Origin: a virus
Virus record (IMG/VR): IMGVR_UViG_3300030019_000008
Direction: 5' to 3' (one strand)
Length of the DNA stretch: 64,000 bases
Shown: one piece after another, positions 9,193 to 13,032 of the stretch
Numbering within the stretch: position 1 is the stretch's first letter
How the letters are laid out: every line of letters begins with the position of its first letter
Position numbers and translations under genes: made by a program
Notes under the pieces: generated by a model
The model's input: only the letters and a program-made list of their open reading frames with translations
Databases searched by the model: none
What the model was told of the DNA's origin: nothing

Positions 9193-9375
9193 TTAACGCC
9201 CACGTTCAAACCACCTGGCAAGAGTGGCTGCAAACGGTTTGGGAGGCGATATGGACCGACTCAATTGCCTGGGTGCATCAACCGAGATGACGTTGCGGTG
9301 AGGCAGCATCGACATCATCTCTTTCGTGGTATACCTATCGAGCGTCATCATGGCTACCATCTGGTCTCCATCGAA
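9193..9375 (-). CDS. nvRNAP beta' subunit, exon 2 (60 aa, FDGDQMVAMMTLDRY...WFERGR)
   Basis: starts with FDGD, which completes the catalytic ADFDGD when joined in frame to exon 1; TAA at 9193-9195. Confidence 0.9.
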   Translation of the reverse strand, partial: FDGDQMVAMMTLDRYTTKEMMSMLPHRNVISVDAPRQLSRSISPPKPFAATLARWFERGR

Positions 9376-9768
9376 CCCAATGTCCAGTTAAGCCGCTCAT
9401 CCCTATTCGGGATTACCCTCTTAACCCGGTGCGATTCCTGGCACCCGCCCATGGCTTTCCCATGGGGGCAGATCATATCATCATCCCCTCACAATGAGGG
9501 GAGGCTTCTACTTGGCAGACGCTGTCCGCTACTCCCCGCTACGGGATGATCGTTGAACCTTACTCATATTTCGCTATCTCAGCGATACTTAGAGTCTTGG
9601 CTGCGTGATTACCCAATTCCTACCCTTTTTACCATACCCAGCTAGTTACCCTGGCCACTTACAAGTTTCCAATGTAAGTTTGGTAGATAGGACTCTAAGG
9701 ATGTCCCCGCAATTCAAAAGCATTCAATCCACCATTACTGATAGATAGGACCTATATTTAAGATGTCG
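9376..9768 (-). mobile_element. group I self-splicing intron without ORF (393 nt)
   Basis: exon 1 ends in U, intron ends in G; P AATTGCGGGG (9705-9714), Q AATCACGCAGC (9600-9610), R GTTCAACGATCAT (9546-9558), S GATGATATGATCT (9470-9482); P7 GATCAT/ATGATC; splicing restores ADFDGD. Confidence 0.9.
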
Positions 9769-11085
9769 ATCAGCGCCATACTGCTCTACGTTGAGGATCG
9801 AGATTGACATGGTTTTGTCTTCCAGGTCATCCTTGATCCCGGTGATGCGCACCAGCTGAATACTGCCTAAACCCAGAGTCGGATTGCGCTGCATGATCAC
9901 CGGTATGCCCTTATGCTTATCGGGATCATCCGGATACAGATACGAGCAATCAGACTCCTCGATCATCTCATCGAACAGACTCTTGACTTTCTCGATCACT
10001 GCCTTATCGGTAGTTCCGACGGCACTGTAGAGCAGCCCCAGTAGATCATTCGGGTTATACCCGCGTCTGGTGAGCTTGCTGGCCAGGTGAGTGCGCAGCA
10101 GCCCAATCCCCACACCCCATGGAATATGTATCTCGTCATACTGGTGAGGACCAGTGAGAGAGGAGATCACACACCGAGCTGAGAAGTCAGTTCTGCCACC
10201 ATAAACTTGCTTGCGAAAGATGCCCTCTTTCGGAGCAAAAAGCTTGTCGTACACTCCCTCGTAGTACTGAGAGAGCATGTCGATCGACTTGATCGTGCGC
10301 TCTTCACGCTGTCGCTGACTGAGCACACACGTCGGAGTATCGATACCAATCATCCCGGTAATGGCATCGATTGCAACGAACATCGTATTGTCGAGAAAAC
10401 GACCCAGGTTGGTGTTCTCGATCACCAACATTGTTCTATTCACCAGCGGGATTTGCTGGCTGAAAACCTTATTTCGATTCTCCTGGATCAGTTGATAGAG
10501 AGGATCAATCTTGTTGCGTTTCTTGATGGTCTTCAGATTGAAGAAGAACTCCATATAGGAATCGAAGTTCTCCACGAAGTTGTTGTAACCGCGCTTGAGT
10601 TTTGCATCCAGTATGGATTGCCAGTAAACCGGCAGATTCCCATCAGGAACATAGCTGGGCATCGTGATCCAGTGCAGCAAGGAAAAGCCCGCGCCTTTCT
10701 TGAAACGCCCCACCAACATCGACCAGATCAGTGGATTGATCATCGCAGTCACGCCACGCGGAGACCTGAGCCAGATGCGAGGTTGTAGATCATCGGTAGA
10801 TGACTCAACAGTCGTGTGACACACCGGACACTTAACACCGATATTGCTACCGGATGTCTTATCTCCGCGACTGTTAGTATATCCAGTCAGTCTGCCGCAC
10901 TGACAAGTGGGTGTGTTGGACAAACATTCGCTACCATCGTGCTGGGTGAATACCTCCTTACGGAATGCTTCTTTTGCTGCTGGAGATTCGTCCACGTCAT
11001 TGACATACTGAGGGTCTTTTACGAACCTCAGAAAGTCATCATCGTAGTCTGCTACTTCTCCATAAATACCCATATTCTCTCCCAA
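9769..11085 (-). CDS. non-virion RNA polymerase beta' subunit (phiKZ gp55-like), exon 1
   Basis: Zn-ribbon CQC...CPVC, KEGIFRKQVYGGRTDFSARCVI, RNPTL motifs; ends at ...QYGAD; spliced product 499 aa. Confidence 0.9.
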
Positions 11086-11090
11086 GAACG

Positions 11091-11135
11091 AAAAAAATAA
11101 CTCCCTCTACCCAAAGACTTCTTGGGTAGAGGGAG
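11091..11135 (-). terminator. intrinsic terminator after chimallin
   Basis: 14-bp perfect stem CTCCCTCTACCCAA/TTGGGTAGAGGGAG plus T-run. Confidence 0.8.
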
Positions 11136-11160
11136 CCTCACTAGAGCCGAGGCTCAGCGA

Positions 11161-13032
11161 TCAGATATTGCCGCGGAAACGACCGAAGCCGGCCGGATTG
11201 CCGCCCGAGGTACGACGCTGGAAGTAGGAGTCGTTGCCACGGGTGCTCATGCGAGCATCGTCGAGGTAGTCGGCACCACGAGTGCGATCACGGCGGGCAC
11301 CGAACAGGCCGCTGGATTCCAGCGAGACGTCGAGCTTGGCCGCGAGCAGCGCTTCGGTCAGTGCGTTCAGGAAGTCGCGGTTGAACGAGTAGCGACGGGA
11401 CATGCCGGTGAAGCGCACTTCGGAGGCCAGCGCGCCTTCGATGATGGTGCGTTGTTCATCAGCACGAGCGATCACATCCGTACCACCGCCCTGGGTTGCA
11501 TCACCCCAGCGACCGATCTGGCCAGCATCGTTGGCACCGAAGGTGTTGCAGATGAAGGCATAGTCGACGTCACGGATATCGCGACGCACACCACCAGGAG
11601 CAACATAGTCGCCATTGAGCAGCGACAGGTTGTTCTTGGAGAGGATCGTGTGGTTCTTCTTGGCCTCGAACTTCGCCGCGAAGTTGCCCTTGGTGAGCTT
11701 TTCTGCAGCACGGAAGATCGCTGCTTGAGCCGAAGATTCACCTTCAGCTGCCATCGCGAACGGAGCCAGGAAGTAGGTATCCGGACCGCATTCGGCGATG
11801 TCGATCGAGACCACCAGGTCGTCGAACATGATGGCTTGCAGGTAATCCGCGAGATCGTCGTCGCGCAGATCCTTGCCCGTATCCATCACATAGCCGCCCT
11901 TCGGATCGTTGGTGACGTTCGCTTCGACGTTGAAACCACCGACACCATGCATGTCGCGACCGCCAGCCGGATTGGTGTTCGGACGGAAGCACTGAGTCCA
12001 GCCGTTGTCCACACGCAGAGCGTTGATGGCCGCCAGCGAGAGCAGAGTGCCTTCGAGGGAGGTCATCCGGGTATGGCCGAGCTGCGTGATGATGAAGTTC
12101 GGGATGTAGGTGCGGGTATCCCGGCGTTCAGTGGTACGGAAGGAGTTGTTCGGCTTTTCTTCCGGCGCATAGATCACGTCCATGTAGCCGCCAACATGAG
12201 CCAGAATCTTGCTCTGAGCACCGATGTCGTTCAGCGAGACATCCATCGAGTTGCTCTGACGATTCGGGATCGTGGACAGCACCAGACGGGTATCGGTACG
12301 GACCGGCACCCCGACAGCGTTCTCGGTGTTCGGCTGGTTGAACAGCGCGCGCACTTGCAGAGCGCGTCCGGCAGTCAGGTCGTCGATGGACACACGGACG
12401 AGACCGGCAGCTTGAGCGAGGATGGTGGCGCAGGCAGTCACGGCATTGGTGAACAGCGCATCGGTGCGCGGCTTCGAGAGCTCGAATCCGGCCGGAACGA
12501 CTTCGGCGTCAGCCTGCACAAACGACGTGTGCGGGTAACGAACCGACAGTTCCTTCTGGATGAAGGCAATCATCTTGCCGTCGAAAGCTTCGCCGGCGTG
12601 ACGCTTCCAGATGATCGTTTCCGGGCCCTTGTTGATCTGGGTCTCGACAGCGCCGAACGAGTCGCCGATCAGCAGAGTGTGGAACGAACCGGCCGCACCC
12701 TTGGAGGTCTTGAGGAACGCCAGGATGACGAGGATCGAAACCGTGATGCCCTCGCTGTTCGCGCGGTCGAACGTCAGGAACGAGTAGTCGTAGTAGACGT
12801 TGTTGACCGTGCCTTCGAAGTACTTGGTGGCGGCCTCGGAGAGACGGACCAGCGTGTCGCCGCTGGCGGTGTCGCCGGCCGGGTTCAGCAGTGCTGCGTA
12901 GTTGATATTGTCCAGGCCTTCAGCCTGACCGCCGAAGTTCGGACGGGCGGATTCAGCGCGGGGGCGGGGAGCCTCGGCATGCTCTTGGCGGCCGTTGTTC
13001 CCGTTCTGGTTGGTATCGTCAACGATGCTCAT
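11161..13032 (-). CDS. chmA: chimallin, major phage nuclear shell protein
   Basis: 623 aa, disordered termini, immediately upstream of nvRNAP beta', strong codon bias, early promoter upstream; matches chimallin size and position. Confidence 0.85.
   Translation of the reverse strand: MSIVDDTNQNGNNGRQEHAEAPRPRAESARPNFGGQAEGLDNINYAALLNPAGDTASGDTLVRLSEAATKYFEGTVNNVYYDYSFLTFDRANSEGITVSILVILAFLKTSKGAAGSFHTLLIGDSFGAVETQINKGPETIIWKRHAGEAFDGKMIAFIQKELSVRYPHTSFVQADAEVVPAGFELSKPRTDALFTNAVTACATILAQAAGLVRVSIDDLTAGRALQVRALFNQPNTENAVGVPVRTDTRLVLSTIPNRQSNSMDVSLNDIGAQSKILAHVGGYMDVIYAPEEKPNNSFRTTERRDTRTYIPNFIITQLGHTRMTSLEGTLLSLAAINALRVDNGWTQCFRPNTNPAGGRDMHGVGGFNVEANVTNDPKGGYVMDTGKDLRDDDLADYLQAIMFDDLVVSIDIAECGPDTYFLAPFAMAAEGESSAQAAIFRAAEKLTKGNFAAKFEAKKNHTILSKNNLSLLNGDYVAPGGVRRDIRDVDYAFICNTFGANDAGQIGRWGDATQGGGTDVIARADEQRTIIEGALASEVRFTGMSRRYSFNRDFLNALTEALLAAKLDVSLESSGLFGARRDRTRGADYLDDARMSTRGNDSYFQRRTSGGNPAGFGRFRGNI

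Follow-up and report, generated by a model that had tools for sequence, protein, structure and literature searches.

In a nucleus-forming bacteriophage, we find the gene for the beta'-N subunit of the non-virion RNA polymerase (nvRNAP), the homologue of phiKZ gp55, to be split on the minus strand by a group I intron, located at positions 9376-9768 of a 64,000-nucleotide stretch (IMG/VR virus record IMGVR_UViG_3300030019_000008), hereafter the window. It is highly probable that this 393-nt ribozyme interrupts the catalytic motif at a (G/N)AD|FDGD-type site, between the first aspartate and the phenylalanine, and that it is a selfish passenger whose removal from the transcript yields a subunit of 495 residues. 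The ribozyme signature, its borders and the colinearity of the exons were computed directly; from the intact, covarying ribozyme we infer splicing in vivo, and unaided.

We compared the two halves of the gene to known nvRNAP subunits. The minus-strand open reading frame at 9724-11085 runs through ...EQYGAD into 14 unrelated residues (RHLKYRSYLSVMVD) before its stop codon, and FDGDQMVAMM... opens a second frame at 9375, which extends to a stop at 9193-9195. Excision of 9376-9768 joins GAT|TTC and restores the reading frame. On PHROG 2987 (phrog_2987, RNAP subunit), exon 1 covers profile positions 1-418 (E 2.5e-114) and exon 2 positions 419-475, and the two abut at 418/419 with neither gap nor overlap. 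The gp381 protein of Burkholderia phage FLC9, the closest cultured relative (~40% protein identity), is encoded by an intronless gene that is colinear with both exons and reads ...LNAD FDGDQ... uninterrupted across the junction. The best match among solved structures is chain A of PDB entry 7OGP, the beta'-N subunit gp55 of the phiKZ non-virion RNA polymerase, of which residues 18-435 match exon 1 (E 1e-59) and residues 438-493 match exon 2. Homology to this family extends over the full length and includes the Zn-finger cysteines and the NADFDGD loop, with the single exception of a glycine in place of the asparagine at the first motif position. A megablast search among cultured phages returned no DNA near-identical to the gene. 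These comparisons bear out a first-pass annotation made from the letters of the window, which had described both reading frames and had placed the GAT|TTC junction where the PHROG abutment and the FLC9 colinearity put it.

The ATG codon at 11073 is preceded by a Shine-Dalgarno sequence (GGGAGAG), and the TTG codon at 11085 directly follows a terminator hairpin. The ATG is the likely start rather than the TTG, and the spliced product would comprise 435 + 60 = 495 residues instead of the 499 given initially. Translation of the primary transcript would yield a 449-residue product with the first of the three Mg-binding catalytic aspartates but not the second and the third, and active nvRNAP would thus require splicing. 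That a second exon is hidden, and that the enzyme is only made after splicing, had been proposed before and follows from the sequence. The spliced junction is expected to read GGCGCTGAT|TTCGATGGAGAC, with the predicted junction peptide ...EQYGADFDGDQMV. A practical consequence is that ORF callers miss exon 2, and with it catalytic aspartates of an essential polymerase subunit; most homologues of the subunit in the protein database have been deposited as truncated proteins for the same cause.

A chimallin gene, coding for the nuclear shell protein, lies directly upstream, and the order chimallin to nvRNAP is that of gp54-gp55 in the phiKZ annotation. The nvRNAP homology and the adjoining chimallin gene together identify the phage as a nucleus-forming chimallivirus. 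We also noted a 17-bp terminator-like hairpin with a U-run 3' of the chimallin gene (11137-11099 on the minus strand, within 11071-11137), and a second terminator-like hairpin at 8539-8510, which closes the two-gene unit.

The intron is recognized by the Rfam group I model RF00028, which aligns from end to end (model positions 1-253) with 9781-9448 of the minus strand at 55.7 bits (E 2e-11 for the 64-kb window), 5.7 bits above the curated gathering score of 50 bits. This match is the only one in the window, and no other relevant RNA family was found there even at relaxed thresholds. The P, Q, R and S elements align to the model, and a core of P3-P8 with P7, the helix that binds guanosine, is present. 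The 5' exon ends in a U (9769), which pairs with G 9751 in the GAU|C/GGUC helix, only 4 bp long, and the terminal base of the intron is a G (9376); moving either border breaks the catalytic motif or this U/G rule. The Rfam model stops at 9448, and the remaining 72 nt to the 3' splice site form a conserved P9.1-P9.2 extension. Phage introns of the IA2 type are expected to carry P7.1/P7.2 and P9.1/P9.2 hairpins, and we assigned such IA2-like features by inspection at 9545-9515 (P7.1/P7.2) and 9445-9387 (P9.1/P9.2). Two other explanations for an interrupted frame were ruled out: the insert contains in-frame stops, which excludes an intein, and the ribozyme fills the whole gap, which excludes a programmed frameshift or bypass. 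The features are collected in Table 1.

Table 1. Coordinates of the split gene, its intron and the intron's helices in the window. Helices were assigned by hand from the Rfam alignment and the sequence and checked against relatives where stated; intron nucleotide 1 is position 9768.
Feature	Position	Strand	Basis or remarks
Chimallin (nuclear shell protein) gene	11161..13032	-	directly upstream; phrog_4795, E 1.2e-58
Exon 1, nvRNAP beta'-N	9769..11073	-	435 codons from ATG 11073 (likely start); ends ...EQYGAD, GAT at 9771-9769
Gly codon GGC	9775..9777	-	position of Asn in NADFDGD
Group I intron, ORF-less, 393 nt	9376..9768	-	5' splice site after U 9769; last base G 9376
Unspliced read-through	9724..9768	-	14 spurious codons (RHLKYRSYLSVMVD) and stop
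P1	9749..9771	-	exon GAU and intron C1 (9771-9768) with guide GGUC, G17-C20 (9752-9749); U.G wobble at splice site; loop ~15 nt
P2	9727..9746	-	intron nt 23-42; 8-bp helix with GNRA tetraloop GUAA (9738-9735); MFE fold
Catalytic core P3-P8, with P, Q, R, S	9485..9722	-	Rfam alignment and by hand
P3	within 9722-9485	-	G48-G54 with U259-C265
P4	within 9722-9485	-	U58-G63 with U161-A167
P5 extension, ~80 nt	9695-9617	-	
P6	~9601-9558	-	~nt 168-211
P7	9471..9551	-	5' strand GAUCAU 9551-9546; 3' strand AUGAUC 9476-9471
P7.1/P7.2, two hairpins	9545-9515	-	
P8	9501-9485	-	nt 268-284
P9	9466-9448	-	
P9.1	9445-9428	-	
P9.2 with inner hairpin	9425-9387	-	
Intron 3' end	to 9376	-	...CUGGACAUUGGG, terminal G
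Exon 2	9193..9375	-	FDGDQMVAMMTLDRY...WFERGR; 60 codons and stop 9193-9195

Comparison with related introns supports these helices. In an alignment of seven introns (the window intron and six relatives) we tested P8, P9, P9.1, P9.2 and the inner hairpin; 84% of the cells are paired and 17 of the 29 pairs show changes on both sides, with P8 misaligned in this set and the covariation support covering P9 to P9.2. None of 500 shuffles reached the observed values, and slid controls gave 29-44% paired cells. The P7 helix of relatives occurs as GACUA/UAGUC, GAUCA/UGAUC or GAACA/UGUUC, and the GAUCA/UGAUC form found in the window is compensated with respect to the consensus. Of seven further related introns that we folded, six have a GNRA-capped P2, each with a differing stem sequence. 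Over 114-122 nt, introns in three IMG/VR loci (L030, L050 and L057) share 73-75% identity with the P5 extension. The unconstrained minimum free energy fold of the whole intron (z = -1.9) is uninformative for the core. Taken with the Rfam alignment, these data agree with the first-pass annotation in its U/G borders, its P/Q/R/S elements and GUAA-capped P2, and its reading of the P7 pair GAUCAU/AUGAUC as covaried against GACUA/UAGUC.

Introns at exactly the same site are present in uncultured chimalliviruses from IMG/VR: one of 1445 nt in L016, which carries an HNH-NUMOD gene, and two without ORF, of 340 nt in L061 and of 339 nt in L057 (its intron 3). Like the window intron, they follow NAD, use the guide (G/A)GUCC and have a GNRA-capped P2 and a P9.1-P9.2 tail; their 3' ends read ...CUGGACA-N4-G| in L016 and in intron 3 of L057, and ...UUGAAGGUAAGG| in L061. 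The genes that host them are 31-40% identical to the window gene, and the ribozyme cores are related, not near-identical. In L061, the pair at +1 beside the splice site has changed from C-G to U-A in a compensatory manner. Related introns at other sites have guides that match the exons beside them (GGUUG with CAAU| and GGCA with UGCU|), as GGUC matches GAU| in the window. These introns bear on the position of the 5' splice site, because the Rfam alignment puts the conserved splice-site U 3 nt upstream of our border (GCGCU|GAU, pairing U 9772 with G 9752). We give almost no credence to cleavage after GCGCU: the product would read ...YGA|FDGD and lack the first catalytic aspartate, with one residue fewer than any homologue, and in the same-site introns a common GUC guide pairs with GAU, with the compensatory change at +1.

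According to our preferred reading, splicing would be initiated by guanosine and directed by the 4-bp P1, in which GAU|C pairs with GGUC and a U.G pair marks the cleavage site, and by the terminal G 9376. GAU would be joined to UUC, giving a 495-residue subunit that is colinear with its intronless homologues.

We searched public sequencing runs for both alleles and for the spliced RNA. Almost all runs that contain this stretch are peat metagenomes, and the intron-containing allele was assembled in the DNA contigs of two peat runs. The contigs of four public runs (three DNA, one RNA) contain neither the spliced-RNA joint nor the intronless-DNA joint, a result that counts neither way, since contigs cannot show absence. 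The bioreactor metatranscriptome X17 yielded a single contig of 239 nt, identical to 9508-9746 and thus wholly inside the intron, with no junction, and no exon contigs. This contig may stem from excised intron that has accumulated, from a copy of the intron in another phage, or from carry-over of DNA; we set it aside as evidence of splicing, because the latter two are equally possible.

The glycine codon next to the intron is a further peculiarity of this allele. Asparagine occupies the first motif position in 82 of 82 readable homologues, which leaves the window as the only exception among 83, and the exchange takes two base changes from AAY. The contigs of two independent peat DNA runs are identical to the window across this codon. 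In E. coli beta', the N458S variant at the equivalent position is active, with a modestly changed sugar selectivity (PMC7862312), and glycine may thus be tolerated in the phage enzyme, as judged from this analogy.

The exchange of an otherwise invariant residue beside the insertion could also be read as a sign of decay, in which case the intron would be a non-splicing remnant and the gene either a pseudogene or a source of two separate polypeptides. Consistent with decay are also the modest Rfam score (55.7 versus 50 bits), the short P1, and the finding that the contigs of the public RNA run hold a single intron-internal contig and no spliced RNA. We nevertheless consider a remnant very improbable: all core elements are present, and the helices stay paired where their sequence differs from that of relatives; the two exons are undamaged, follow each other correctly and remain conserved up to their ends; contigs from two peat runs contain this very allele; nvRNAP is a core chimallivirus enzyme; and exon 2 by itself would be without FDGD if it were not joined to exon 1.

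The 4-bp P1 and the lack of a convincing P10 count against the intron reading as such, and they could also mean that splicing occurs only with a phage or host RNA chaperone or a maturase-like factor, in which case the supply of nvRNAP would depend on that factor. Ribosomes or chaperones improve the splicing of several phage group I introns. Phages that form a nucleus uncouple transcription from translation (PMC12908238), which together with such aided splicing would favor a need for a helper. We regard this dependence as unlikely. Neither the intron nor its immediate neighborhood encodes such a factor, and relatives that share the short guide are common and frequently arranged in tandem, which speaks for robust splicing on their own. 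There is also no sign of timing control, and nothing in our data supports the earlier suggestion that splicing acts as a timing checkpoint.

The closest described counterpart of the autonomously splicing intron that we favor is found in phiKZ. There, the same gene is split in the same catalytic motif (gp55/gp56/gp56.1), the order after chimallin is the same, and the ribozyme matches RF00028 with 75.6 bits and contains P7.1/P7.2; the mature protein is represented by PDB 7OGP chain A, termed 'PHIKZ055, PHIKZ056.1'. The phiKZ intron measures ~1.36 kb and carries the HNH-NUMOD gene gp56 in its 5' part, with the ribozyme core downstream of this ORF, whereas the window intron has 393 nt and no ORF. 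The phiKZ junction, ...KAPN (AAT)|...acg|GCTGATTTTGAC (GCT GAT TTT GAC GGC GAT), corresponds to N|ADFDGD, whereas the window is split at AD|FDGD. The phiKZ site is located 6 nt upstream of ours, which indicates two separate insertions in the same motif. The analogy to gp55 drawn in the first-pass annotation consequently holds for an intron-split gene with an HNH gene in phiKZ but not for the point of insertion.

Other phage introns resemble the window intron by description. The intron in PhiPA3 gp210, a vRNAP beta-subunit gene, is likewise a group I intron placed at the catalytic aspartates of a chimallivirus RNA polymerase (PMC11620839); it differs in residing in another polymerase and another subunit and in encoding an HNH endonuclease, shown to be active against a co-infecting phage (Birkholz et al. 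2024, PMC11620839), whereas the window intron encodes none. ORF-less and tandem group I introns are known from Twort and the Bastillevirinae (PMC11878797). Those of Twort, the Bastillevirinae and T4 are IA-type ribozymes; like the window intron, they interrupt conserved codons of essential genes and often lack an endonuclease gene, but they belong to different genes and phage families. In T4, td and nrdB contain phage group I introns of a comparable kind.

Among the best 120 homologues from a large protein collection, 45 read through the motif, and ~75 (~60%) stop in it or just before it. Of these ~75, 20 end after NADFDG, 18 after NAD (the site used in the window), ~12 after NA and ~10 at the upstream QRN|P, the rest elsewhere. 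P0002, at 70% identity the closest relative, is interrupted after NADFDG rather than at the window site. Homology likewise ends at the motif in many cultured phages, and 23 of 80 IMG/VR loci (~29%) are split in or near it. In the 24 IMG/VR loci that we scanned, RF00028 has 28 matches in the same gene, distributed over 17 loci and reaching up to four per gene. Four split loci (L015, L028, L039 and L044) gave no match at the RF00028 gathering score, and their splits could represent divergent introns or other insertions. Altogether, the motif and its surroundings contain at least seven insertion sites, of which five fall inside the 21 nt of the motif itself, as judged from an insertion-site comparison of the kind that had been proposed at the outset.

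The most crowded case is L057 (5143-6665), in which four tandem RF00028 introns interrupt the gene, three of them in or beside the catalytic motif. Around the motif the order is VRA|intron|PNAD|intron|FDG|intron|D..., which leaves micro-exons of 12 nt (CCAAATGCTGAT, PNAD) and 9 nt (TTTGATGGT, FDG). Three introns in tandem are found in L030 and L034, and two each in L005, L013, L029 and L050. The P5 extension of the window intron is common to introns at the FDG|D and QRN|P sites, and its 3' tail to introns at three different sites, which indicates that one ribozyme lineage occupies several sites.

Our search of the literature found no description of such a population-level intron hot spot, which is not proof of absence. 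With the window intron, a further ORF-less example joins a hot spot of which phiKZ had already provided a case, and taken alone it adds little. The population-level picture, with its many sites, tandem introns, micro-exons and guides that vary with the site, may merit a study of its own.

We next consider whether the window intron once carried a homing endonuclease. No HNH, GIY-YIG or LAGLIDADG ORF is encoded in 9376-9768, and no sense-strand ORF of at least 30 residues lies wholly inside the intron, one 40-residue ORF overlapping its 3' end. The four short ORFs on both strands that overlap the intron have no Pfam match at E values up to 1, in line with its initial description as ORF-less. Relatives carry endonuclease genes in the P1 loop, for example L016, in which the HNH-NUMOD gene located there is 26% identical to phiKZ gp56. 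The P1 loop in the window, of ~15 nt, holds no remnant, and most introns of the hot spot are ORF-less, and it is thus equally possible that the intron never had an endonuclease; the earlier statement that it had lost one is unproven. One metagenome scan returned no close relative of the window locus, and with it neither an intronless nor an endonuclease-bearing near-relative by which the insertion might be dated. As a general principle, an occupied site no longer offers an uninterrupted target to a homing enzyme (PMC12908238).

In our reading, the intron would be a selfish passenger drawn from a large related population that colonizes a 21-nt stretch in chimalliviruses. It would persist because imprecise loss from catalytic codons is presumably lethal, and its spread may be due to co-conversion, to endonucleases supplied in trans or to reverse splicing. 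The last route can be taken further: reverse splicing might move related introns between sites by means of a minimal GUC guide that reads the aspartate codon GAU, and the glycine exchange would be a tolerated change that alters the targets of endonucleases specific for neighboring sites. If true, this would explain why related ribozymes are found after the first aspartate (in the window, L016, L061 and L057) and after the third (intron 2 of L029); we judge this extended scenario quite improbable.

The tandem introns of L029 deserve mention in their own right. Intron 2 (L029:5880-6280) uses the guide GAGUCC, as do the NAD|F introns, and is inserted after the third aspartate (FDGD|), which suggests that a GUC guide might target any GAU codon. 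For intron 1 of this locus, no junction fits both the U/G rule and the reading frame, as a U/G junction would insert a cysteine or break the frame. Finally, the phiKZ-like locus L072 of IMG/VR, which encodes a gp55 homologue with an N terminus similar to that of the phiKZ protein (MGLYAKVVDH...), is interrupted after NADFDGD and not at N|AD, and the position of the intron thus differs even between close relatives.
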